Shown here: piece by piece, positions 32,025 to 43,843 of the stretch
Layout: each line of letters begins with the position of its first letter
Position numbering within the stretch: position 1 is the first letter of the stretch
Source of the DNA: a virus
Taxonomy: Duplodnaviria; Caudoviricetes
Strand: one strand, 5' to 3'
Virus record (IMG/VR): IMGVR_UViG_3300043450_000376
DNA length: 64,000 bases
Translations under genes and position numbers: made by a program
The notes under the pieces: model-generated
What the model was told of the DNA's origin: nothing
The model's input: the letters and a program-made list of their open reading frames with translations, nothing else
The model's database searches: none

Positions 32025-32143
32025 ACCCCGGCTAGGGCCACTCCCTAGTAGACAATGTTAATAACTTTATTAAAAAACATTGTACTATGTCAAATAAAAG
32101 TATTATATTTAAATTATAAATCAATCAATCTAAAAAAATAACT

Positions 32144-32860
32144 ATGGCAAAATTTGAAGCATCAACCAACTTACCAGCATACTTTAAAAGTATTGACAAA
32201 CTGGCGAAGCCTTTAAGCAAGGCTGCGGAAAAAGAATTAGCTATCCGGATTCAGGCCGGCGACGAGGCTGCAATGCACTCCCTAGTAAATGCTAACCTTA
32301 AGTTCGCTGTCAGCTTAGCGAATAAGTTTATTGGACTAGGCTTGCCTGTCGACGATCTTATTATGGAAGCTAACTGCGGTCTTATCGAAGCTGCAAAGCG
32401 TTTTACTCCAGAAAAAGATGTTAAGTTTATTACCTATGCACAGTTCTGGATTCGTAAGAAGTTAAATACTGCACTAGGCGAGTATGGTCGTACTGTACGA
32501 TTACCTATGAATCAGGAATACGATATCTACAAGCGCAAAATGGCTGGCGAAGATATCAACTTAACTAATATTAGATTAGACAAGCCAATCGGCGAAGATG
32601 GTTCTAATACCTTAGGCGATCTTATTCTTCGTGCAGAATTCGTGGATCCATTTGAAGAACAAAGCGTTGAGCAACAAGTTGCCGCAGTGTTAAGCAAATT
32701 AAATGACCATGATCGCAAGGTAATCGAGACTTTCTATGGAATCGACAGAGGCGAAGCTCGCTCTGCTAAAGAAACTGCTGATGAATTAGGAATGGAAGTT
32801 TCTAAAGTAAATCAAACTCTTCGATTAGCTCGTCACAAATTACGTAAAACTTTTAACTAA
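32144..32860 (+). CDS. RNA polymerase sigma70-family factor (regions 1.2-4)
   Basis: LVNANLKFAVSLA, DDLIMEANCGLIEAAKRF, KFITYAQFWIR, VRLP, region 4 HTH SAKETADELG. Confidence 0.92.
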   Translation: MAKFEASTNLPAYFKSIDKLAKPLSKAAEKELAIRIQAGDEAAMHSLVNANLKFAVSLANKFIGLGLPVDDLIMEANCGLIEAAKRFTPEKDVKFITYAQFWIRKKLNTALGEYGRTVRLPMNQEYDIYKRKMAGEDINLTNIRLDKPIGEDGSNTLGDLILRAEFVDPFEEQSVEQQVAAVLSKLNDHDRKVIETFYGIDRGEARSAKETADELGMEVSKVNQTLRLARHKLRKTFN

Positions 32861-32876
32861 TTAAATCCTAAAGAAA

Positions 32877-33278
32877 ATGTCAGATCAAATTAAACAATGG
32901 ATAGCTAAAGGCTATGCGCTAGAAGTAACAGAAGTAATTATAGAGAATGATAAGGCAGGGGATCTAGATCAAGAAACTCTTTTACTTGATATAACTAATG
33001 CTGCACTGGAAAATATGAAGGATGATATAGTTCCTTTTGTAAATCCTAACTTGACTGAAGAGCAGGTCAGTGCAGTGATAGACTCTGCAGCGAAAGCCCA
33101 AATAAGAAATACTATTTCTGAAATGGTAGACGCTGGATTAATTGATGCAGCGCTTAGCGAATCAGGCGAGGTAATGTACAAGCAGTCTGCAAAAGGCGCA
33201 GCCTACGAAGACATGCTTCAAGATGGATTCATAAAGCCAGAAGACTTTACTAAACAATTAAAAGGAGGAAAACTATGA
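32877..33278 (+). CDS. hypothetical acidic protein
   Basis: coupled to sigma gene. Confidence 0.6.
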   Translation: MSDQIKQWIAKGYALEVTEVIIENDKAGDLDQETLLLDITNAALENMKDDIVPFVNPNLTEEQVSAVIDSAAKAQIRNTISEMVDAGLIDAALSESGEVMYKQSAKGAAYEDMLQDGFIKPEDFTKQLKGGKL

Positions 33279-33586
33279 TAAGTTATGTCGAAGAACAGGG
33301 TAGTATTGCAAGCGTGGTGCACGACAACGGGACCCGAACCCAGTTTGTATTAGGTAACTATGAACTTATAGGTTGGGATTCAGAAGAGGTCTGCTGCATG
33401 TCTCAAACAGGCGAGGTTAATTTCTTTACTGCAACCGGCGAGAATAGAGGTATGTATAGATTAGGATTACCCAATCAAGAACCTCTCTCTTTTAATAATG
33501 GTATATTACTTTACGAAGACCTTGGCCTAAGAGAAAAGTTTGCATATAATCGTCGCACAGGCGAAACCCGGCAGTCGAATCGATAG
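33275..33586 (+). CDS. hypothetical beta-rich protein
   Basis: ATGA overlap. Confidence 0.55.
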   Translation: MISYVEEQGSIASVVHDNGTRTQFVLGNYELIGWDSEEVCCMSQTGEVNFFTATGENRGMYRLGLPNQEPLSFNNGILLYEDLGLREKFAYNRRTGETRQSNR

Positions 33587-33623
33587 TACAATAATAGATA
33601 ATACTATAATATAACCAGGAATC

Positions 33624-33788
33624 ATGTCAGTAGGAACCTATTACTATTACTCAAAACTAGATAAATCAACCGAGGCTGTTGATAAAGTTTTTACAACTGG
33701 CAGATTGGCCGCCGCTAAACACTTCGCAAACCGTAAGAATCTGCCGCTAAAGGCATTCTTACAAATATGGGCAGTAAGCAAAAAATAA
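33624..33788 (+). CDS. small protein (54 aa, not in ORF track)
   Basis: MSVGTYYYYSKLDK..FANRKNLPL..FL. Confidence 0.5.
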   Translation: MSVGTYYYYSKLDKSTEAVDKVFTTGRLAAAKHFANRKNLPLKAFLQIWAVSKK

Positions 33789-33797
33789 TCTCGATGT

Positions 33798-33941
33798 ATG
33801 GATCCAAAAGAAAAAGAAGGGGCAGACTCAGCTGCGCAACAAGAGCTAGACCAATGGTTAAAGGATCTTGATAAAGAACTTGATAATCTTGAAGAAGAAC
33901 AAAAAGAGAGATGGGGACCAGATGGAAAACCTGAAGAATAA
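33798..33941 (+). CDS. small acidic protein (47 aa, not in ORF track)
   Basis: MDPKEKEGADSAAQQELDQWLKDLD.. Confidence 0.45.
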   Translation: MDPKEKEGADSAAQQELDQWLKDLDKELDNLEEEQKERWGPDGKPEE

Positions 33942-33943
33942 AA

Positions 33944-34011
33944 TGTTAATAACTTTTTTAAAAATAAATGAACCTGGATTTTTTTAATTCAGGTTTTTTT
34001 ATTATATTTAC
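33944..34011 (+). promoter_or_regulatory. early promoter, hairpin subclass; 65 bp identical to 39579-39643
   Basis: TGTTAATAAC..GAACCTGGATT-T5-AATTCAGGTTT..TATATTTAC. Confidence 0.8.
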
Positions 34012-34037
34012 ATATAACAAACTAACAAAGATATAAT

Positions 34038-34319
34038 ATGAACTACTCACAAATCCTTTCTCAAATCAACACCCTTTCTACTGCTGACCTTTCAAAGTTA
34101 AATGCAGATCTTATTGACATTATTAAATTACGTCGCAGACAAGAAGCGCGTATGGTAAAACGTTCTTTAATAATTGGGATGTCGGTTAGAGTTAACCATC
34201 CTAAAGCTGCGGGTAAAACGTTCGAAGTTGTTAAAATCAACCGCACCAAAATACATTTAAAAGAAGCTGGTAAATTAGGCATTATAATCGCTCCACTTAG
34301 TTTGACTGAGGCAATTTAA
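34038..34319 (+). CDS. hypothetical basic early protein
   Basis: follows promoter. Confidence 0.65.
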   Translation: MNYSQILSQINTLSTADLSKLNADLIDIIKLRRRQEARMVKRSLIIGMSVRVNHPKAAGKTFEVVKINRTKIHLKEAGKLGIIIAPLSLTEAI

Positions 34320-34335
34320 TAATAAACAAATCAAT

Positions 34336-34647
34336 ATGAAAATGACAAGAGAAGAACAGATTAACATCGTAAGGGCAGAGGTAGAAATATACCTTGATAA
34401 TAATGCTCAATGGACAGAACTCGTCGACCTATCGGAAAGTGAAAGAGTTCATATTATTGATATAGGAACCTCGATTCTCTGCACTAAGTGGAAGGTAGGA
34501 TATGAAGGTGGAAGCTTTGTACAGAGCTTTGTTGCTAACGATCTTATGGGTGCGATTGGTCGCGCAGATTATACAACATACAAAGGATTAAAATTCTTTG
34601 CAAACTTAGTCTATAATGTAGGAATACCAACTAAACTATTAAAATAA
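34336..34647 (+). CDS. hypothetical protein
   Basis: GGSFVQSFVANDLMGAIGRAD. Confidence 0.65.
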   Translation: MKMTREEQINIVRAEVEIYLDNNAQWTELVDLSESERVHIIDIGTSILCTKWKVGYEGGSFVQSFVANDLMGAIGRADYTTYKGLKFFANLVYNVGIPTKLLK

Positions 34648-34653
34648 AAAGAT

Positions 34654-34893
34654 ATGAAGATACACGAAAAGGCGAGAGCCTATGACGAATTAATGAAGGA
34701 TATAGATTCCTTTATTACTCAATTAGAGGAACACTCTAACTCCATTAAAGAAATCGATAAGGACGAAACTGGTAAAGACGGGATGGGATATTATCCTATG
34801 AAAGTAGGTCGTCTCGTTGGAAGCAACTTTGGTCTAGAGCTAAAGATTCAAAAAATGGTGGGTATATTAGAATGGTATAAGAAATTAAAGTAA
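34654..34893 (+). CDS. hypothetical protein
   Basis: coupled. Confidence 0.55.
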   Translation: MKIHEKARAYDELMKDIDSFITQLEEHSNSIKEIDKDETGKDGMGYYPMKVGRLVGSNFGLELKIQKMVGILEWYKKLK

Positions 34894-34914
34894 TCAATTA
34901 AATCAAATATAACT

Positions 34915-35217
34915 ATGGCAAAACTAAGCTTTAACCCTGGATCAGGAACCTCGTTCCACGACACTGTAATTACATGTTCTTATAACCAATTAGCCCAAGC
35001 AATTGGTGAGCCCCAGCATAGCGATAATACTGGCGAGGATAAAGTAAACTTCGACTGGAGGTGCGAGTTGGAAGACGGACAGATATTTACAATTTATGAT
35101 TGGAAAGAGTATAGACCAATTGGGAAAGACGAAATGATTGAATGGCATATTGGTGGTTACAACCATATTGTTACAGAGCAAGCTCTCATTGAGTTGACAG
35201 CACTCTTAGCACAGTAA
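34915..35217 (+). CDS. conserved phage hypothetical protein
   Basis: KVNFDW..FTIYDWK..EWHIGG. Confidence 0.65.
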   Translation: MAKLSFNPGSGTSFHDTVITCSYNQLAQAIGEPQHSDNTGEDKVNFDWRCELEDGQIFTIYDWKEYRPIGKDEMIEWHIGGYNHIVTEQALIELTALLAQ

Positions 35218-35341
35218 TATAGTTTCTATTATATCAAGAAATATAATCCAACAGGAGTGTCCCAGCGACCTCCTGTTCTGGGTTAGTATTAAAACCTTTT
35301 GGCTTATTCTAATAAAAGATATCAAAATAATACTTATATTC

Positions 35342-35701
35342 ATGTTTAAAGCGATCGCAAACTGGTTTAAAGGATTGTTAGGTAAAGCAGAACAAGAAGT
35401 AGTTAAGGACAAGCAAGTAGTAGATTCATTCGAGAAATGGTCAACTGTTGTTAATGAGATTCCTAAAGCAAAAGTTGAAGAGGTTAAAAAACCTTATCCA
35501 ATCGTAGCCGAAGAAACTGTAAAGCCTGCCCCTACTAAAGCTGAGAAGAACTCTCGTAAGAAAGATTCAACGAAGCCTGCTAAAGAGACAACTAAGACAA
35601 CTGCAAAGACGTCTAAGCCCTCTACAAAACCTGCGCAGAAGGCTGGCAAGCCAGCTGCAAAGACTACACCTAAGTCCAATACAACTAACACAACTAAGTA
35701 A
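35342..35701 (+). CDS. protein with histone-H1-like K/T/P/A-rich tail
   Basis: AKETTKTTAKTSKPSTKPAQKAGKPAAKTTPK. Confidence 0.6.
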   Translation: MFKAIANWFKGLLGKAEQEVVKDKQVVDSFEKWSTVVNEIPKAKVEEVKKPYPIVAEETVKPAPTKAEKNSRKKDSTKPAKETTKTTAKTSKPSTKPAQKAGKPAAKTTPKSNTTNTTK

Positions 35702-35928
35702 TGGTAAAGACACTAGTACTACACAGAGAAGACACAAAGGTAATATATTGCCTAGGTGGTGGCGAAGAAATCCAATTGAATAATGCGGTAATCCGTATTA
35801 CATTTCCGGAAACTACTCGTCAAATTAAGACCATTTCGTTTGGCACTCAAGAAGAAGCAGACTCTGCTTTTAAGGAGATTCAAGACTGGCTTGCTAGCAC
35901 GCTAGCCCAGTTGGTTATGGAACTATAA
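35701..35928 (+). CDS. hypothetical protein
   Basis: 1-bp overlap. Confidence 0.55.
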   Translation: MVKTLVLHREDTKVIYCLGGGEEIQLNNAVIRITFPETTRQIKTISFGTQEEADSAFKEIQDWLASTLAQLVMEL

Positions 35929-35931
35929 GAA

Positions 35932-36000
35932 TTGTTAATAACTTTTCTTAAAATAAGTCCTCAAAGATTTTTTTCTTTGAGGATTTTTTATTATATTAGC
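35932..36000 (+). promoter_or_regulatory. early promoter, hairpin subclass
   Basis: TCCTCAAAGA-T6-TCTTTGAGGA (35958-35983) before TATATTAGC. Confidence 0.8.
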
Positions 36001-36026
36001 TCTATAACCAATTAACTAAAGAAGAT

Positions 36027-36182
36027 ATGTGGACACTAGATTGCAGCTACTACAAGAAAGAATTCTCAACTCTACAAGAACTTATCGATGATGTCATGTC
36101 CAGCGGCATGGATCCAAATTACGAGATCCTGCGAGATGGCAAGCCTACGGGCGAAGAGCTATGGGATTTTATAGTCCCATAA
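36027..36182 (+). CDS. small protein (51 aa, not in ORF track)
   Basis: MWTLDCSYYKKEFSTLQELIDDVMSSGMDPNYEI..; between two promoters. Confidence 0.6.
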   Translation: MWTLDCSYYKKEFSTLQELIDDVMSSGMDPNYEILRDGKPTGEELWDFIVP

Positions 36183-36270
36183 TTTTTTGAAAATACGTGC
36201 TCAAATATTTTTTACTGTCAATTATTTTTATTATATTAGCTTTATATTAATCAACTAAACCCTTAAATGT

Positions 36271-36489
36271 ATGTATGTAATTATTAATCTTAATCACGAT
36301 GGTGATTCCTATTTCTTAACTGAAAACCTAGACAAAGCCCAAGCGGAGTTTAATGAGTGTTGCAAAGAAGACGAATATAACTTCAAAGTAATCCTATGTC
36401 GTCCAACTCTTGAAGGAACATTTGGATTTGGAAGTCGTGGCGAACTTTATGGTGCGGAGATCATTGAAGAATGGGAGAGAGAAGATTAG
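36271..36489 (+). CDS. hypothetical early protein
   Basis: follows promoter 36183-36240. Confidence 0.55.
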   Translation: MYVIINLNHDGDSYFLTENLDKAQAEFNECCKEDEYNFKVILCRPTLEGTFGFGSRGELYGAEIIEEWERED

Positions 36490-36500
36490 TCTCTCCCAAA

Positions 36501-36568
36501 TTGTTAATAACTTTATGAAAATAATTAATAAAAAGTTTTTTACTGTCAAATAAAAGTATTATATTTAC
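36501..36568 (+). promoter_or_regulatory. early promoter with upstream box (58-bp spacing)
   Basis: TTGTTAATAACTTT..TTTTTTACTGTCAAATAAAAGTATTATATTTAC. Confidence 0.8.
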
Positions 36569-36593
36569 TCTATAACCAATTAAAAAATAACAT

Positions 36594-37010
36594 ATGTCAA
36601 ATCAAATCGTGTTCGCCCGTTTCGGAATGGGACCAGACCCAAGAGTTTCAGAAGTATTAATGTCTGAAATTATTTTAAACAAAACTGACGCAAAAATTCT
36701 TCCACTTCCTGGAATTATTATCTCAGTTTTTAAAAGTGAGTTGACACCAACTCAAATTCGGGATCGTTTTAAAAACGATAGTGAGTTAAATGAAGTTCCA
36801 TTTATGGTTACGACCTTAGAAGATTTCGATATTAATCTTCCAGAAAAAATTCGTAAATCAGTTTTTGGTTTAGGTGAAACCTCATCACCAACAAGTTCCA
36901 CATCACACTTAACAATGGATGACTTATTGGAATTGATTTCAGTTAAAGGTTTAAGTGGACTAACCGTCGACGAAAAATCCAGACTCGATGTATTACGAAG
37001 TGAGTTTTAG
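36594..37010 (+). CDS. protein with DUF6576-like C-terminal helical domain
   Basis: MDDLLELISVKGLSGLTVDEKSRL. Confidence 0.55.
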   Translation: MSNQIVFARFGMGPDPRVSEVLMSEIILNKTDAKILPLPGIIISVFKSELTPTQIRDRFKNDSELNEVPFMVTTLEDFDINLPEKIRKSVFGLGETSSPTSSTSHLTMDDLLELISVKGLSGLTVDEKSRLDVLRSEF

Positions 37011-37033
37011 TTTAGTAGTTAATTGATAGAATT

Positions 37034-37060
37034 GGGAGAGCGAAAGTTCTCCCTTTTTTT
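37034..37060 (+). terminator. intrinsic terminator
   Basis: GGGAGA-GCGAAAGT-TCTCCC + T7. Confidence 0.8.
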
Positions 37061-37127
37061 GTTAATAACTTTTTGAAAAATAATTGACCCCAGATTTTTT
37101 AGTTTGGGGTTTTTTGTTTATATTTAC
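37059..37127 (+). promoter_or_regulatory. early promoter, hairpin subclass; no ORF downstream
   Basis: ACCCCAGATT-T4-AGTTTGGGGT (37087-37110) before TATATTTAC. Confidence 0.75.
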
Positions 37128-37222
37128 TATGTCAATCAATCAATAAGACGGGACGGTTCTGAACAAGGAAGCGGGAGGTATACTCCGACCTACCTCTATA
37201 TTTGGCTAGGATTACAGGAAAA

Positions 37223-37290
37223 TTGTTAATAACTTTTTGAAAATAAGTGTATAAAAGTTTTTTATTGTCAAACTAATTGCTTATATTTAC
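37223..37290 (+). promoter_or_regulatory. early promoter with upstream box
   Basis: TTGTTAATAACTTT..TTTTTTATTGTCAAAC..TATATTTAC. Confidence 0.75.
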
Positions 37291-37313
37291 TTAACCAATT
37301 AACTTAACTACAT

Positions 37314-37826
37314 ATGACAAATCAAATCAGAGCAGCTCGGCCAAACCTTAATCCAAAGTCACTACCAACCTTGGCGCTTGCAGGTAGAGCCAACATCACC
37401 TTCCGCAATAATGAACAACTTACCCACATGAACGTGCGTATCAAGCAGTTACGTGACAAGGAGGATCGCAAAAAGATGCTGCCTATTTACTACGTCAATA
37501 TCTCTCTATTGGCGGACGGGCGTAGCGGTCATCAGTTTGCAGGTACCCTATTTGCCGAGCCCTTAACCTATGTATTGGGCAAAGGAGTTACACCAAGCTC
37601 GCGACTGGCACAGGCTCTAGGCTGGGTGGTAGCTGCTATTAAGGACCCTACAATTTTGGGAACCCGAGTAGGTCTATTTCATAATGGGACCTGCTGCAAA
37701 TGTGGCTTGCCATTAACCCATCCAGAAAGTATCAATACTGCAATGGGACCTGTTTGTTTGGAGAGAGTAAAAGCCGCAATGACATCAGTAGACTTTTTCG
37801 ACACCTTTACCCCAATCGGGGTATAG
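37314..37826 (+). CDS. DUF6011-like Zn-finger protein
   Basis: CCKCGLPLTHPESINTAMGPVC. Confidence 0.7.
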   Translation: MTNQIRAARPNLNPKSLPTLALAGRANITFRNNEQLTHMNVRIKQLRDKEDRKKMLPIYYVNISLLADGRSGHQFAGTLFAEPLTYVLGKGVTPSSRLAQALGWVVAAIKDPTILGTRVGLFHNGTCCKCGLPLTHPESINTAMGPVCLERVKAAMTSVDFFDTFTPIGV

Positions 37827-37843
37827 GTTATACTTAGTTACAG

Positions 37844-37910
37844 TGTTAATAACTTTTTGAAAATAAGTAACAAAAAGTTTTTTACTGTCAAATAAAAGTA
37901 TTATATTTAC
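37844..37910 (+). promoter_or_regulatory. early promoter with upstream box
   Basis: TGTTAATAACTTT..TTTTTTACTGTCAAATAAAAGTATTATATTTAC. Confidence 0.8.
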
Positions 37911-37935
37911 TTATAACTAATTAAAACAAATAAAG

Positions 37936-38187
37936 ATGATTTTTCAAATAAAAAACGAAAGCAACGAGGTTGGACTGTTAAAAGTCGTTGAATGTATAGG
38001 AAATACCTGGTCTCCCGAGTCATATGGTGATATTATCAGTAAGTCATTAAAACTCTTTTCTGAAATAGGAGAGGCCGATGGATGGGATGTTGATGATCTT
38101 GATGATTTTGTGGAATTCAACAATCTGAGAAACGTATTAATTTTGGAGCATTTTTTTATAGTGGACGAAATACAATTTTATCAATAA
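37936..38187 (+). CDS. hypothetical acidic protein
   Basis: follows promoter. Confidence 0.55.
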   Translation: MIFQIKNESNEVGLLKVVECIGNTWSPESYGDIISKSLKLFSEIGEADGWDVDDLDDFVEFNNLRNVLILEHFFIVDEIQFYQ

Positions 38188-38229
38188 AATACTTATATTT
38201 ACTTTATAATCAATTAAACTATATACAAT

Positions 38230-38643
38230 ATGCAAGAAAATCAAGTAACTTTAGTGGACCAAATGTACGCATGGGGTCAAGGTGAATCAGCTCTCTACCC
38301 GCACTGTCATGACTTCTATGACTGGTTCTGTAGCGATGCTTCGCTCGATCGTAGAGCTAAATCCCTTCAGAGCAAGGTAATCAAGTTGGTAAAGTACTTT
38401 TGCAAAAATGGAAATCCAATCGATTGCAGCAAGGTGTATGTATTCTTTAAGAATAACTGTCCAATGGGCGGACCGCTTTATGATTCATTCTCTATCTGTG
38501 ATCGCGAATCAGGTGATGTTCTCTTTTGGGTAACTCCTAAATCCGGTCATAGCGGTAAAGCTGAAATCTTTTCACGCGCAAAGGGATTTAGCGATCCTTT
38601 GGCCGAAGCTGATAATTTCTCTCAACTCTTAAAATCTATCTAA
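38230..38643 (+). CDS. conserved phage hypothetical protein
   Basis: FYDWFC.D.SL, YVFFKNNCP..GPLYDSFSICD. Confidence 0.7.
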   Translation: MQENQVTLVDQMYAWGQGESALYPHCHDFYDWFCSDASLDRRAKSLQSKVIKLVKYFCKNGNPIDCSKVYVFFKNNCPMGGPLYDSFSICDRESGDVLFWVTPKSGHSGKAEIFSRAKGFSDPLAEADNFSQLLKSI

Positions 38644-38645
38644 CT

Positions 38646-38831
38646 ATGGCAACACAAGAAGCAATCGATGAAGCAATCGCGATATGGGGTCAAGACGCAG
38701 TCTATCAAGCAATGGAGGTCGTAGCAATGTCAGACCCCGATGGGGCCTACACAATGTTCGAAGATCTAGGAATCTTTGATCAAGCCGAGGTAGTAGAATT
38801 CCTCTATTTCGATGGGGCAGGTAATGAATAA
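38646..38831 (+). CDS. small acidic protein
   Basis: coupled. Confidence 0.55.
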   Translation: MATQEAIDEAIAIWGQDAVYQAMEVVAMSDPDGAYTMFEDLGIFDQAEVVEFLYFDGAGNE

Positions 38832-38881
38832 AGAGACTCCGTAGTAAGTATAATAATATTAATCAATTAAATCAAAGAACA

Positions 38882-39262
38882 ATGGGATTAGACATGTATG
38901 CACAGGTTCGCAGTAACAAGCCAAAAACTGCAGTAGACTTTAAAACTGAAGAAGGTGTTGAAGATCAGGAGTTACACTACTGGCGTAAGCACCCTAACCT
39001 GCACGGTTGGATGGAAAACCTATACTACCTTAAGGGCGGTACGGCCGAGAGTTTCAACTGCGTAAACGTGCTAATTGAGTCAGATGACTTAGACCAGTTA
39101 GAGCGTCATATTAAAGAGCGTCACCTACCTCAAACCGCTGGATTCTTTTTTGGTAATAGCCAATCCGATGAGCGTGAGATAGAAGACGATCTACAGTTTA
39201 TTAAAGAGGCGAGGAGAACGATCGCGGCTGGAGAGTATGTCTACTATACTTCATGGTGGTAG
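38882..39262 (+). CDS. conserved phage hypothetical protein
   Basis: MGLDMY..YWRKHPNLHGWM..GFFFG..Y.SWW. Confidence 0.7.
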   Translation: MGLDMYAQVRSNKPKTAVDFKTEEGVEDQELHYWRKHPNLHGWMENLYYLKGGTAESFNCVNVLIESDDLDQLERHIKERHLPQTAGFFFGNSQSDEREIEDDLQFIKEARRTIAAGEYVYYTSWW

Positions 39263-39322
39263 GCCCGCCTGCCCACTCCCTAGTAGATTAGGTATATTAA
39301 TAACTAGATAAATAACCCATAC

Positions 39323-39577
39323 ATGAACGAAATAAAAAGAGACCTTAAGACTTCACAAATGCTAGCCGAGCTGGTAAGTCTTCGTCATACAGATTTCGAT
39401 GCATTTATGAATCTGTTATATGATGCACTACAGCGCGAACTTAGCGGTGCTATCTTTGATGAGACTCCACTTACTGAAAAACAGGAAGCACTCAACTCAA
39501 TGATTCAATACTTTCAAGATAAGGAAGAATACGAGAAGTGTGCAGTGCTTAGGGACATGGTCCTAACGATCGAATAA
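39323..39577 (+). CDS. small protein with UVR-like motif
   Basis: QDKEEYEKCAVLRD. Confidence 0.6.
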   Translation: MNEIKRDLKTSQMLAELVSLRHTDFDAFMNLLYDALQRELSGAIFDETPLTEKQEALNSMIQYFQDKEEYEKCAVLRDMVLTIE

Positions 39578-39646
39578 TTGTTAATAACTTTTTTAAAAAT
39601 AAATGAACCTGGATTTTTTTAATTCAGGTTTTTTTATTATATTAGC
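39578..39646 (+). promoter_or_regulatory. early promoter, hairpin subclass (duplicate of 33944)
   Basis: 65-bp identity with 33944-34008; TATATTAGC. Confidence 0.8.
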
Positions 39647-39757
39647 TTATGTAGTTTAGACCCCAGCCGGACTCCGTAGTAAATAGATAACTAAAGAGCA
39701 GTGCCAAAAACTACTCTACATTAGTATAATAATAGTAATCAATTAAAAATCAAACAT

Positions 39758-40876
39758 ATGACAGGAAAAAAAGAAGTCCAAGTCCGCAAGTATTTCTCAC
39801 AGGAATTCGGCGGCGAAGTTCCAACCGGCAAGGTATTGGATCTATTCCAAAACTTTCAGACCCATCCTCTAGGCGAGGGTATCTCTTATTCGCTCTTTAA
39901 CGGAGTTATAAAGAAGTTACGCGGTCCACAAACCCCAGCTGATGTAACACAAACCAGCCGAGTAGTTGCAACACCAGCTGCAGCAACCAAGGATTTTGAA
40001 TTAGAGATTGTCGAGATTGGCAATATGGAATTTCCTGATTTTAAATGCTTTAAGACTGGTACCCTATTAGACAAGTTATTTTCAGACCACGAAGATGGCG
40101 GAGGTATCTATGGTGGTACTGCTAATATTGTAATCGGCGAGTCGGGCGTGGGTAAATCAACTGTAATGCTAGATGTTCTTGCTAAGATTAAGCGTAATCA
40201 ACCTGAAGCAAAGATCCTCTATATCTCTAGCGAAATGACTCGTAATGATCTCTTCTTCTACTACAGTAAAATGCCGATTATTGCCGAGGTTCCTACCTTA
40301 CTCTTAATGGATTATATCCAAACGGGTTTTGTGAAAGCAATTGAAAAGGCCTTGACTGGAGAACACGATGTAATCCTTATTGACTCGCACCAAGATATTA
40401 TTGTAAAGCTAAAGGATGTCTTAGGCTGGAAGTCAACCTATGCAGAGGCATGGTTAACTAATCTTGTAATCAAAGCTGCAGACGGTATGGGTAAATCAAT
40501 CTTCTGTATTCAACACATGACAAAGGGCGGTACCTATGTAGGAAGTACTTATCTTAAACATGCGACTACCTCAATGATGGAGATTAAGTTTGGCCCAGGC
40601 AATCGCAGATACTTAGAGTTCACAAAGAACCGTAGAGGCGGCAGCTTAGTAAATAAACCCCTCTTCTATTCAATGGCAGATGGTCAAGTAGTTTACGATC
40701 AAGCAAGTTGGGATCTTCAAATCCGAGCTGAGGATGTTGCACATACCGAAGAGGCAAGGCGAGAAGAATTAGAGAGCGAGTTTGATGCTCTATTTCTAAG
40801 CGCAACCTTAGCAACCTCATCAGTAGAGGAGCCAACTGAATTTACTGAAGAAAATAAAGTTGAGGTAGAGCAGTAA
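39758..40876 (+). CDS. RadA/Sms-like RecA-fold ATPase (no Zn finger or Lon domain)
   Basis: Walker A GESGVGKST, LYISSEM, Walker B ILIDS, HMTKGG.YVGS..LKH. Confidence 0.75.
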   Translation: MTGKKEVQVRKYFSQEFGGEVPTGKVLDLFQNFQTHPLGEGISYSLFNGVIKKLRGPQTPADVTQTSRVVATPAAATKDFELEIVEIGNMEFPDFKCFKTGTLLDKLFSDHEDGGGIYGGTANIVIGESGVGKSTVMLDVLAKIKRNQPEAKILYISSEMTRNDLFFYYSKMPIIAEVPTLLLMDYIQTGFVKAIEKALTGEHDVILIDSHQDIIVKLKDVLGWKSTYAEAWLTNLVIKAADGMGKSIFCIQHMTKGGTYVGSTYLKHATTSMMEIKFGPGNRRYLEFTKNRRGGSLVNKPLFYSMADGQVVYDQASWDLQIRAEDVAHTEEARREELESEFDALFLSATLATSSVEEPTEFTEENKVEVEQ

Positions 40877-40930
40877 CTCTGCCTACTTCTTTAGTATAAT
40901 AGTATTAACCAAAAAAACCAAATAAAATAT

Positions 40931-42052
40931 ATGTTATCACAAGCACAATTTAACGAGGCAAAATTAGCCGCAATCAACACTGAACCGCTGACTAAACCCG
41001 TAATGCTAAGTGAGATCAAATTGAGTGACAATTCACAGAAGGATGGCTTCATCCACTTGAATGACTCAAGGGTCCCAGCTAGCGGCGCGTTTTTTAAACA
41101 GCTGGCTTCCCTACTTAACATCAACCAAACCTTAAACTCTAAGTTTGAGAAGAATGGTGATGCTGCAATCGGTAATAAACTTATCGGCGCAGTCAAGCAC
41201 TACACAGAGAACCGAGGTGGAGATGTTCCCCTAATGATGGTTGCAAATCGTGATCATCGCGAAATTACAGGTATCGTAAAGGCAGACAAGTTTGCACGTA
41301 TCTCTAATGAGACTCTATTTAAAACTGCAGAAGGAATCCTTAACGAGGTACCGGACATGCATATTGAGTCTATTGACAATGGTAACGGCACCAGTCGTAT
41401 TAACTTGATCCATACCAGTGAGGTAGGTTTTGAGCGTATCGGCCCAGACGAAGTATTCCGTTTCGGAGTTTCATTAGTGAACAGCCCTACACAAACTCAA
41501 GTAGATGATTTCTTCTACAGATTAGTATGTGCTAATGGCGCAGTTGCTAAAGACATGACAGCAGCCTTCCAATTAAAACAGGCAAATGCTACAGGTATTG
41601 CCGAGTTATTCCAATCCCTTAAAGCTTATGGTAAAACAGGTTTTGTACCGCGTGCCTTTGCTGAAAGATTAGAACGTGCAACCGGTACACGCGCAAGTTT
41701 GCAAGAGGTACAAAGAGCAGTGGACTCCGTAGTAGGTAACCTTAAACATGAGGATCCGGAAATGAGACGTCGTCTACAGGAAAGCGTAGTGGACAACCAC
41801 TTCCCAATGTATAAGTCTACCATGGCCAGAGTATTTAATGCAGGCCATAACCCAGATTTCTTAACAGACAAGCAAAAGAGTTTCGTTAAGACAGGTATGA
41901 GTGTATGGGATCTTGTCAACGAGTTGACTTGGTTAGGTAGCCATAACACTGTTGAAGAGTATGAAAACCGTGCACGCTTTAAAGCTGCAGGTGGAAGCCT
42001 CTTCGCTAAGAGTAACTATGATTTAGAAGCAGCACAGTTTGCGACTATATAG
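40931..42052 (+). CDS. DUF932/DUF945-like protein
   Basis: GVSLVNS....FYRLVCANG; WDLVNELTWLGSH. Confidence 0.6.
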   Translation: MLSQAQFNEAKLAAINTEPLTKPVMLSEIKLSDNSQKDGFIHLNDSRVPASGAFFKQLASLLNINQTLNSKFEKNGDAAIGNKLIGAVKHYTENRGGDVPLMMVANRDHREITGIVKADKFARISNETLFKTAEGILNEVPDMHIESIDNGNGTSRINLIHTSEVGFERIGPDEVFRFGVSLVNSPTQTQVDDFFYRLVCANGAVAKDMTAAFQLKQANATGIAELFQSLKAYGKTGFVPRAFAERLERATGTRASLQEVQRAVDSVVGNLKHEDPEMRRRLQESVVDNHFPMYKSTMARVFNAGHNPDFLTDKQKSFVKTGMSVWDLVNELTWLGSHNTVEEYENRARFKAAGGSLFAKSNYDLEAAQFATI

Positions 42053-42076
42053 TTTGATGATTGATTGATTAGGATT

Positions 42077-42100
42077 AGGCCCTCTACAAGAGGGCCTTTT
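42077..42100 (+). terminator. intrinsic terminator ending the early island
   Basis: AGGCCCTCT-ACA-AGAGGGCCT + T run. Confidence 0.8.
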
Positions 42101-42231
42101 TCTTTTAGGATAAAACCGTACTCCGTAGTAGAGTACAAGATCTTGGAGTTCTTATCCAGCTATTTAAATCTAGACCGTTTCAATAGCAAACCCAAAGGGA
42201 TCTGCGCAAGCTGATCCCTTCTTTTTTGGAG

Positions 42232-42360
42232 TCAGCGACCTTGTCCTTGATACTTCTTAGGTTTCTGTTCCTTAGGACCGAAGCTCTTCTTTGCCTTGCC
42301 AACCTTCTTTACAGTAGGACGGAAGGTAGAGCCAGCAGTTGCGCCTTTCTTTGTTGCCAT
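42232..42360 (-). CDS. small basic late protein (42 aa, not in ORF track)
   Basis: MATKKGATAGSTFRPTVKKVGKAKKSFGPKEQKPKKYQGQGR; TATAAATA at 42385-42392; hairpin 42195-42220 downstream. Confidence 0.7.
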   Translation of the reverse strand: MATKKGATAGSTFRPTVKKVGKAKKSFGPKEQKPKKYQGQGR

Positions 42361-42524
42361 TTCTAGACCGGGTTATTTTGCAATTATTTATAAGTTATAG
42401 GTATAATAGAAATAGGCCCAAAAGCCCGGGCCCATGCCGACGGGGCATAGGTATTTATGGTGACCCCGCTCCGTGGGGATCCCCGGCCCCTGGAGAAATG
42501 CTCCTCTATTAGGGCCGCCAGAAA

Positions 42525-42582
42525 TTGTTAATAACTTTATGCAAAAAGATTGTCAGGAGTCATGGAAAAGTGGTATATTAGC
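42525..42582 (+). promoter_or_regulatory. early-type promoter (48-bp spacing) with no convincing downstream ORF
   Basis: TTGTTAATAACTTT..TTGTCA..TATATTAGC. Confidence 0.6.
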
Positions 42583-42734
42583 TATAGGTAACCGGTTAAG
42601 AACTCCGACCCAGGGCTGGACCCAGCATAAGGATCCAGAAGAGTATACTCCGACCTGCCTCTCTCTAGGGGGCAGGACTAATGTACTACTCTATACAACG
42701 CATTAGTTTTGAACCAGTTAGACAACCCTAAGTG

Positions 42735-43367
42735 CTAGATACCAAGCTCCTTGGCGCTAGCGATTATATCGACCAGCTCCTCCTTGATTTCGTCGATATA
42801 TTCCTGTCGGCCAACCTTCGGCTGGATTATATGTATATCTACACCATGATAAATCAGTACCCGTTCAAGTATATCCCAAGCAAGGAATCTGGCTAGCCTG
42901 TCCGGGGTCTCGATAATCAGGGTGCTGACCTTTTTACGTACAACCAGATCCATAATTCGGTTCAAGCCCGGTGCATTATCATCTAGCCTGTTCGCGCGCC
43001 TAACCTCTTGGATTACCTCATCGACCCTGATACCCCGGGCTGTGCAGTAACCCTGTACCCGGTCTAGCTGGCTACGCAGCCTGCTCGTACTGGATATTCC
43101 GGCTGCCCCAGAGTCTGGAATGGGGCTCGTTCTACAATATATTATTACTAGCCTGTCTTGAGGTACTCTACTCCCTAGTAGATATAGTATCTGGTCTGAG
43201 TCTATATAGACCCTACCATTAACCCGGTTCTTCATAGGTGTTATCTTACCCTGTTCTATATAGCGACCTAGAGTTCGGGTAGTTACACCTAGTCTCTGCG
43301 CGGCTTCGCGACTACTTATTAATTCGCCAGTAGGCAAGGTCTGCGGTATCGTAGGTTCTATCTTCAT
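42735..43367 (-). CDS. tnpA: IS607-type serine recombinase (MerR-like HTH + resolvase catalytic domain), no adjacent tnpB
   Basis: SSREAAQRLGVTTRTL.RY, YCRTS nucleophile, DRLARF; GATAAATAA at 43374-43382. Confidence 0.8.
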   Translation of the reverse strand: MKIEPTIPQTLPTGELISSREAAQRLGVTTRTLGRYIEQGKITPMKNRVNGRVYIDSDQILYLLGSRVPQDRLVIIYCRTSPIPDSGAAGISSTSRLRSQLDRVQGYCTARGIRVDEVIQEVRRANRLDDNAPGLNRIMDLVVRKKVSTLIIETPDRLARFLAWDILERVLIYHGVDIHIIQPKVGRQEYIDEIKEELVDIIASAKELGI

Positions 43368-43500
43368 ATAGGGTTATTTATCTAGCCCCATACAGACAGC
43401 CTGGAACCCGGTGTCAGCGGATGTCTACTAGTGTCTACAGTTCCGGGTGGATCGCCCGACCCGAGGATTCCGTTGCGGGCCCCGAGTCGAGAGGCGCACC

Positions 43501-43630
43501 ACTCCGTAGTCCTTAAGTAGGACCAAGTGGGTCAGTCTGGGTCGGCTGGCTGCTGGCACTCCGTAGTCCCGGTATCTAGGCTAGGTGCTGGCTGGGGTCT
43601 AGCCTATATAGGTTACTCCGTAGTCCCGGT
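43501..43630 (+). repeat. three ACTCCGTAGTCC direct repeats at exact 57-bp period
   Basis: copies at 43501, 43558, 43615; last two extend to ACTCCGTAGTCCCGGT. Confidence 0.85.
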
Positions 43631-43843
43631 CTGGGCAGGTAGAGTCTATATAGGATTGGTGATAATATAGAGAAGAGTAGACTAGGAGGGTCTTATACCT
43701 AGGGTTAGGCTTGTTCTTTCTATTATTAATATAAGTAGAGAAAGTATCTATAGAAACAGGAGTAGTCTAGATATAGGTAGTATTATTATTGGTAAAGAGC
43801 CGCCCCTTTGAGTTTAGAGGCGGCAAAATACCTAGACCCGGTT

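Follow-up and report, generated by a model that had tools for sequence, protein, structure and literature searches.

A conserved single-copy IS607 TnpA-like gene and a one-strand cluster of short direct sites in freshwater jumbo phages

The locus and the predicted TnpA-like protein

The window, a 64,000-nucleotide stretch of a virus of the Caudoviricetes (IMG/VR record IMGVR_UViG_3300043450_000376), carries a gene of the IS607 TnpA type, here called TnpA-like (Table 1). Its product combines a MerR/Xis-type winged helix-turn-helix (HTH) at approximately residues 16-63 (Pfam HTH_17/MerR at 17-61) with an IS607-type serine recombinase catalytic domain at residues 73-207 (Pfam Resolvase at 74-204, E 8e-11). 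An earlier note, made from the sequence alone, had described an intact HTH and the motifs YCRTS and DRLARF; all are present in this ORF, the two motifs at residues 77-81 and 156-161, respectively. Against the NCBIfam equivalog model for the IS607 transposase (NF033518) the protein scores 94.8 bits, below the cut-off of 110 bits, and a sequence search of the PDB again led to the IS607 family. Compared with canonical IS607 TnpAs, the loop after the nucleophile motif has 6 additional residues and no S-T-x-x-Q context, and the C-terminal extension is absent. The HTH is the best-conserved part of the protein across lineages; it also shows a weak match to a small-terminase family (PHROG phrog_57, E 1.5e-4).

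Table 1. Features of the window, and copies of the ACTASGGAGT site in four related records
Feature	Position or record size and completeness	Strand	Remarks
TnpA-like gene	42735..43367	-	210-aa ORF; IS607 TnpA type
ATAAATA late-promoter-type box	43375..43381	-	ends 7 nt before the TnpA-like ATG
Short inverted repeat	43393..43417	-	5-bp arms, GACAC/GTGTC type; just upstream of the late box
Lysine-rich 42-aa ORF	42232..42360	-	ends KKYQGQGR; TATAAATAA 24 nt before its ATG
Phased array, three sites	43501-43512, 43558-43569, 43615-43626	-	-143, -200 and -257 from the ATG; core ACTACGGAGT on the gene strand
Site within the TnpA-like coding sequence	43170..43179	-	+188, codons for LLGSR; place kept in most lineages
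Site past the terminator of the convergent 373-aa gene	42120..42129	-	equivalent in L001-L006, L009, L013 and L022
Six distal sites (32040, 32277, 38836, 39275, 39671, 41724)	32040..41733	-	same strand as the array
G001 (record of L001; 85% nucleotide identity to the window)	114 kb, 44%	one strand	9 copies, in the last 6 kb
G002	253 kb, 94%	one strand	12 copies, in a single 11-kb region
G003	271 kb, 100%	one strand	10 copies, in a single 8-kb region
G004	111 kb, 41%	one strand	12 copies, in a single 17-kb region

The AlphaFold2 model of the protein, computed from an input alignment of 85 sequences, has a mean pLDDT of 91.6 and places strand beta-1 at residues 73-80, a long loop at 81-92 and helix A at 93-110. 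Its best Foldseek matches were 6DGC, 3LHK, 3LHF, 3ILX and 6DGB (TM approximately 0.7 by target). The N-terminal domain matched Xis and BldC, two proteins that bind head-to-tail on direct repeats. Modelled as a homodimer, the protein reached a score of 0.48 against 0.00 for the best control, a level attained by 20 of 30 proteins solved as pairs and by 1 of 23 solved as single chains. The dimer runs had at least 47% of their contacts in common and a partner pLDDT of at least 71, and the predicted interface involves residues 159-174 and 191-210. The complex model supports a homodimer, although the pass may simply mirror the likeness to the solved IS607 TnpA dimers.

The ATAAATA box in front of the gene resembles the -10 box of T4-type late promoters (TATAAATA-like). 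It lies 4-7 nt from the TnpA-like ATG in all lineages, whereas in front of many window genes it typically ends approximately 21-25 nt before the ATG. The earlier note had placed a phage late promoter 6 bp before the ATG: the box itself stands, at 7 nt and conserved, whereas its late timing is a reading of the box. From this element we infer late, near-leaderless expression of the gene. In the inverted repeat at 43393..43417, 3 of 5 pairs changed on both sides between lineages (compensatory changes), and the repeat may serve as an operator or fold into a small hairpin. For the GC-rich block upstream, a structured RNA was not supported, as RNAalifold across 14 lineages (-140 to the ATG) retrieved only the 5-bp inverted repeat at -4 kcal/mol. 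An Rfam search of the whole window gave nothing at gathering thresholds, with only sub-threshold matches at chance level in 41.5-45 kb, and no tRNA genes were found in the window.

Equivalents of the 42-aa ORF, 39-48 aa long and ending in GQGR or VGQG, follow the TnpA-like gene in most lineages. The ORF was found only in this phage group, and no Pfam family or named homologue was retrieved for it. The non-coding stretch at 42400-42735 is 90% conserved with L001 and much shorter in L005 and L006. It contains an early-promoter-type TGTTAATAAC box at 42526 (+), directed antisense into the TnpA-like gene, and then a GC hairpin near 42660-42685. This stretch could be an early antisense or small RNA.

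Conservation of the gene and of the nucleophile position

All genome-wide statements rest on related IMG/VR records. In a large protein database the TnpA-like protein falls into a tight clade at 76-99% identity, with one member at 64% and the next ones down at 31%; an exhaustive profile search added intermediate homologues at 37-51% identity. Megablast of the 40-47 kb region against GenBank phages gave no match, and the nearest proteins of GenBank phages are IS607-type genes that are approximately 25% identical. The gene order is constant: the TnpA-like gene, a basic ORF of 39-48 aa, a convergent DUF932-like gene of 366-382 aa (373 aa in the window) and a KaiC/RecA-like ATPase of approximately 370-390 aa. 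This synteny is kept from 99% to 37% protein identity in all contigs with enough flank. A search of viral contigs with the 373-aa neighbour returned 18 loci, and in 17 of them the TnpA-like gene occupies the same convergent position. The exception is L024, a 4.4-kb fragment in which Zn-ribbon and HExxH genes occupy the slot. At L024:2388-3202, the Zn-ribbon ORF and the HExxH metallopeptidase-like ORF are accompanied by a 58-bp-spaced site pair that is still kept. As judged from these contigs, the TnpA-like gene is a conserved feature of a group of roughly 250-270 kb freshwater jumbo phages.

Three related records, of 114 kb, 253 kb (94% complete) and 271 kb (100% complete), contain exactly one Resolvase-domain gene each and no match to the TnpB models PF07282 and NF040570. 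Beside the window gene, no tnpB was found, and the flanking ORFs gave no Pfam match. The absence of tnpB on either side, as stated in the earlier note, thus holds for the flanking ORFs and extends to the three relatives, where a check for tnpB remnants and further IS copies came back negative but for the one Resolvase-domain gene per record. Pairwise dN/dS of the gene is 0.06-0.13. The sequence comparisons indicate that the gene is vertically inherited, under purifying selection and not an IS; this combination of inheritance and selection rules out a passive IS.

An ordinary or decaying IS607 copy that had lost tnpB would fit the IS607-type architecture and the sub-threshold NCBIfam match. However, the gene is single-copy, sits at the same site in relatives down to 37% identity with no clean empty site among close relatives, and is under strong purifying selection, and there is neither a tnpB remnant nor any IS-like end. 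Where mobility of an IS607 element would be expected to show, we found one copy per genome and identical neighbours in all loci but L024; where IS ends would be expected, the sites that we found are spaced 57-58 bp and keep one orientation left and right of the gene, direct and not inverted. For practical purposes, synteny and selection refute this reading. The suggestion that the gene is something other than a passive IS is therefore borne out by its single copy, fixed synteny, purifying selection and conserved late-type box.

The nucleophile position is far less constant. Where the motif could be read in close homologues, 34 have YCRTA, 3 have YCRAA and 5 have YCRTS, so Ala is present in about 37-38 of about 42-44. 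All five YCRTS homologues are 98-99% identical to the window protein, and P0001, also 99% identical, carries Ala. The relatives at 37-51% identity read YCRAA, YCRSA, YCRAG and similar; across P0047-P0054 and L013-L027 the column is A or G, with Ser in P0050 and L025 only. In the 85-sequence alignment, Ser occurs in 56 sequences, all of them distant, canonical-looking IS607 TnpAs, and a residue other than Ser in 29, among them almost every one of the nearest relatives. The canonical motif of IS607-type homologues is Y-C/A-R-V-S, as against YCRTS in the window, and the window codon for Ser81 is AGC versus GCC in relatives, a difference of two adjacent base changes.

Even where this Ser is missing, Y77, R79, Q100 and R157 show little or no variation, and most proteins retain D156 and R160. 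A second serine, S92 at the beginning of helix A, is widespread among relatives and missing from P0048, L019 and L025. With R79, D156, R157 and R160 kept and S92 in many relatives, the Ser-less proteins may use a noncanonical nucleophile. Because most relatives have Ala or Gly at the nucleophile position, the conserved function of the clade is, by this alignment, independent of the canonical nucleophile and of recombination chemistry. The window protein, with its Ser81, may have regained recombination between direct sites.

A phased array and a one-strand cluster of sites

Upstream of the TnpA-like gene, the exact 12-mer ACTCCGTAGTCC occurs three times, at 43501, 43558 and 43615 (spacing 57 + 57 bp), within CACTCCGTAGTCC at 43500 and 43557 and TACTCCGTAGTCC at 43614. 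The block is GC-rich (0.49 at 43-44 kb versus approximately 0.36 for the window). The three exact repeats with a 57-bp period that the earlier note reported in a GC-rich upstream block are thus real, the 12-mer being exact, but they are not confined to that block: with the array ends a one-strand cluster that is 11.6 kb long. In the window, the 10-mer ACTCCGTAGT has 7 copies where 0.02 are expected, always on the + strand. Its degenerate form ACTCCSTAGT (ACTASGGAGT on the gene strand) occurs 11 times between 32.0 and 43.6 kb, again always on the + strand and never on the other (starts in Table 1). In direct orientation to each other, the site at 42120 and the array flank the small ORF and the TnpA-like gene.

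The same arrangement was found in related records (Table 1). For instance, relatives that are 94-100% complete (253-271 kb) have 10-12 copies of ACTASGGAGT within 8-11 kb and none elsewhere, and the reversed control pattern gave 0-2 matches in G001-G004. Throughout the related lineages the cluster opens, directly upstream of the TnpA-like gene, with 2-5 copies spaced 57-58 bp, and it reaches only toward the early genes. Over 16 distinct loci, the strand tally of the sites is 102 versus 3. The logo of the 102 sites has its information within the 10-bp core, with weak G/T at -2 and -1 and A at +10, or approximately 12 bp in total. More than half of the sites (55%) lie outside ORFs, compared with a 20% non-ORF share of the span, a difference whose p-value is overstated because the lineages are not independent. 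Four sites of the window follow a stop codon at a distance of 5-94 nt, with an early-promoter element 13-54 nt further downstream. Over a range in which the TnpA-like protein diverges to 37-50% identity, the sequence of the sites and their 57-58 bp phasing are retained. From this co-occurrence and co-conservation we infer that the TnpA-like protein binds the ACTASGGAGT sites.

Several further elements lie close to the sites. Between the two proximal sites of the window, at 43530-43545, is a GTAC-containing element (CCACTTGGTCC), with GGTACC or GATAC in other lineages; all lineages have an element of this type, approximately 25-30 nt upstream of the proximal site, and it may be a second protein-binding or bending site. 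In L010, the region upstream of the 37%-identical homologue (L010:90-260) contains four tandem units of approximately 30 bp (AAATAGGATCTGA...TTTGCCC). Only one ACTAGGGAGT site precedes the gene at this locus, whereas a pair spaced 57 bp follows it. An 84-aa ORF of the early region, at 39323 (+), shares its unusual arrangement of box and site with the TnpA-like gene: its ATG comes 8 nt after the end of ATAAATAACCC, and a ACTCCCTAGT site lies approximately 33 nt upstream of that box.

Two other identities of the motif were tried and rejected. Its TAGGGAG likeness recalls a T7-type single-subunit RNA-polymerase promoter, but only approximately 12 bp are conserved and most copies are antisense to genes. 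As a part of the repeated early promoter it fails too, since sites are near only 2 of approximately 13 TGTTAATAAC boxes and 2 -10/leader elements.

We also considered that the cluster is read by another phage or host factor, or serves replication or transcription as a polar cis element, the TnpA-like protein being a mere neighbour that has other targets. This would explain why L024 keeps sites without the gene there, why sites adjoin some early promoters and why all copies are oriented with early transcription. Yet L024 is a mere 4.4-kb fragment, and the array is directly upstream of the TnpA-like gene in 17 of the 18 loci found through the neighbour and in every locus found through the protein, with one site kept within the TnpA-like coding sequence itself. 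The motif is also too short for a T7-type promoter and unlike the early and late promoter elements. Ultimately, we regard this reading as rather improbable.

Public data comprised assembled contigs from 20 freshwater runs of 13 studies with all or part of the stretch; 15 of these runs contain at least half of its sampled words, and in runs X1-X7 the share is 0.94-0.99. Contigs over 38.0-45.5 kb contain no join of two motif sites, a result that, coming from assembled contigs, is uninformative on absence. A single joint, from 39602 to 42526, was seen in one RNA-library run with a 27-nt side, and it falls at two early-promoter boxes, not at sites. In several runs, contigs leave the window sequence precisely at early-promoter boxes (39576-39643 and 42522-42555), which suggests strain variants that swap gene cassettes at repeated early promoters. 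RNA-library contigs overlap the TnpA-like gene in three metatranscriptomes; as contigs, they are silent on strand, ends and timing. In two runs of one study, RNA-library contigs start at 43837 with adapter in front, just past the stop codon of a 204-aa gene and before the terminator hairpin. Position 43837 may be an RNA end.

The earlier note had proposed a recombinase that would resolve concatemers, form termini or invert or excise the early island. With Ala at the nucleophile position in most of the clade and in nearly all deeper relatives, this proposal is left unsupported, and inversion is ruled out because all motif copies are direct. In a narrower form, the protein of the window sublineage would be an active site-specific serine recombinase on direct sites, for instance in multimer resolution or in excision of the 1.4 kb from 42120 to the array. 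Ser81 is indeed in the canonical position, two residues after R79 and right after strand beta-1, and R79, D156, R157 and R160 are kept; the AGC codon is only two bases off the GCC of relatives, Ser is found independently in P0050 and L025, and direct repeats flank the gene. Set against this, Ala and Ser toggle alone, as at a neutral site, with Ala in the 99% identical P0001 and in most of the clade. The protein has the 6-residue loop insertion and lacks the S-T-x-x-Q context and the C-terminal extension, and 11 direct sites would destabilise an early region that is nevertheless collinear in all relatives. We think such an activity very unlikely.

Relation to known systems and proposed role

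The IS607-family TnpAs (IS607, IS1535, ISC1926; 6DGB, 6DGC) have the same domain order and fold as the phage protein and a similar predicted dimer interface, and short direct repeats lie near the 5' side of the gene in both. TnpA dimers of IS1535 recognise four 9-bp direct repeats that are in helical phase; they also spread on the DNA and bring two segments of it together while their conformation is inactive for chemistry (PMC6188088). The ends of IS607-family insertion sequences carry several 9-bp subterminal motifs that are mostly 10-11 bp apart and inverted between left and right, and have GG termini (PMC6188088). In contrast, the phage gene is single-copy and immobile, has no tnpB, does not conserve the Ser, and encodes a 6-residue loop insertion and a shorter C-terminus. 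Its sites are 10-12 bp long, lie 57-58 bp or kilobases apart and are all direct, whereas IS ends have 9-bp motifs every 10-11 bp within 60 bp.

Like the phage protein, the Tn3/gamma-delta resolvase has a serine-recombinase fold and about three sites directly upstream of its own gene, a res arrangement that doubles as an autoregulatory operator. However, its DNA-binding domain is C-terminal, its res subsites are inverted repeats bound by dimers, it is active and it has no dispersed polar cluster. The phage protein is set apart from small serine resolvases and invertases by its N-terminal HTH and its single asymmetric 10-mer sites. The Xis/BldC-type MerR-like winged-helix proteins, structural matches of the phage N-terminal domain, act architecturally or as transcription factors on direct-repeat arrays, but each consists of a single domain, lacks a dimerisation domain of the recombinase fold and has closely packed sites. 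In domesticated transposase regulators, fold and cognate end-repeats are likewise kept for a host (here phage) function under purifying selection. Among DDE enzymes, there are well-known cases of transposases exapted as regulators. In full-text searches on IS607 and serine recombinases, we found no Ser-less, domesticated or exapted IS607-type TnpA, in phages or elsewhere.

We propose, with a probability of roughly 0.55, that the TnpA-like protein is an exapted IS607-family TnpA that acts as a late, dimeric, sequence-specific DNA-binding and bridging protein on the polar site cluster. The conservation of Ser-less proteins, together with a one-strand motif cluster beside the gene, argues for a DNA-binding or bridging role rather than for a recombinase or a mobile element. 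An IS607-family TnpA would have been captured long ago by a freshwater jumbo phage lineage and would since then have been inherited vertically as an ordinary single-copy gene, the array and the other sites being its former transposase end repeats. The MerR/Xis-type HTH of each subunit most probably recognises one 10-bp site, (G/T)(G/T)ACTA[C/G]GGAGT(A). The sites are solitary, at distances of 57-58 bp or of kilobases, unlike the adjacent pairs at 10-11 bp in IS1535 ends. One DNA-binding domain of a dimer anchored at a site would therefore stay free, which would allow bridging or looping between sites. Nucleating at the phased array that precedes the gene of the protein, the complex would extend over the right-hand 8-17 kb of the early region, and the outcome would be bridging or looping and a larger nucleoprotein complex, as for IS1535 TnpA at the left end. 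Counting against this explanation, L024 has sites without the gene in the slot, the other active-site residues stay conserved in the Ser-less proteins, and the window protein itself has the canonical Ser.

As to what such a complex does, our tentative preference, held with limited confidence, is late autoregulation together with silencing or insulation of the right-hand early region. A site adjoins only 4 of roughly 13 early-promoter boxes, and no general early shut-off follows from this.

A different role would make the protein and the array a cis landmark for packaging or replication, with a TerS-like or initiator-like protein and a cosB, pac or iteron-type array. The cluster occurs once per genome, is polar and starts at a phased array upstream of a late-type HTH gene, an arrangement that the lambda cosB-Nu1 pair resembles. 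The weak phrog_57 match and the RecA/DnaB-like ATPase and DUF932 neighbours fit as well. More broadly, ParB-parS and lambda gpNu1-cosB likewise pair a genome-unique site cluster with an adjacent gene whose HTH product nucleates a larger complex. The phage protein, however, has no homology to ParB or TerS beyond the weak HTH match and no ParA or TerL nearby, and parS is palindromic. There is no terminase large subunit nearby, and the sites extend over 8-17 kb and favour intergenic regions, which neither a pac site nor an origin needs. The cumulative GC skew turns at approximately 26-27 kb and not at 43.5 kb, and four assemblies of approximately 271 kb of one relative break at unrelated places. 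We consider a packaging or replication landmark distinctly unlikely.

Whatever the protein does at its sites, a whole clade of large, environmentally abundant phages keeps it under strong selection together with a regular cis feature, namely 10-12 one-strand copies of a 10-mer within approximately 4% of the genome and a 57-58-bp phased array. The occurrence of Ala and Ser at the nucleophile position of 99% identical proteins is a natural experiment on a serine-recombinase scaffold whose chemistry has become dispensable. The locus also offers a testable handle on how jumbo phages mark or organise one domain of their genome. In a more speculative form that we hold to be unlikely, a Ser-less IS607-type family would read the 10-12 one-strand sites as an 'address' at one end of the early region, fold or silence that domain or mark it for packaging or replication, and perhaps have been re-awakened in the window protein by Ser81. 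If this is true, an address-reading Ser-less transposase would be a new kind of phage chromosome-organising system, made from a transposase and its former end repeats.
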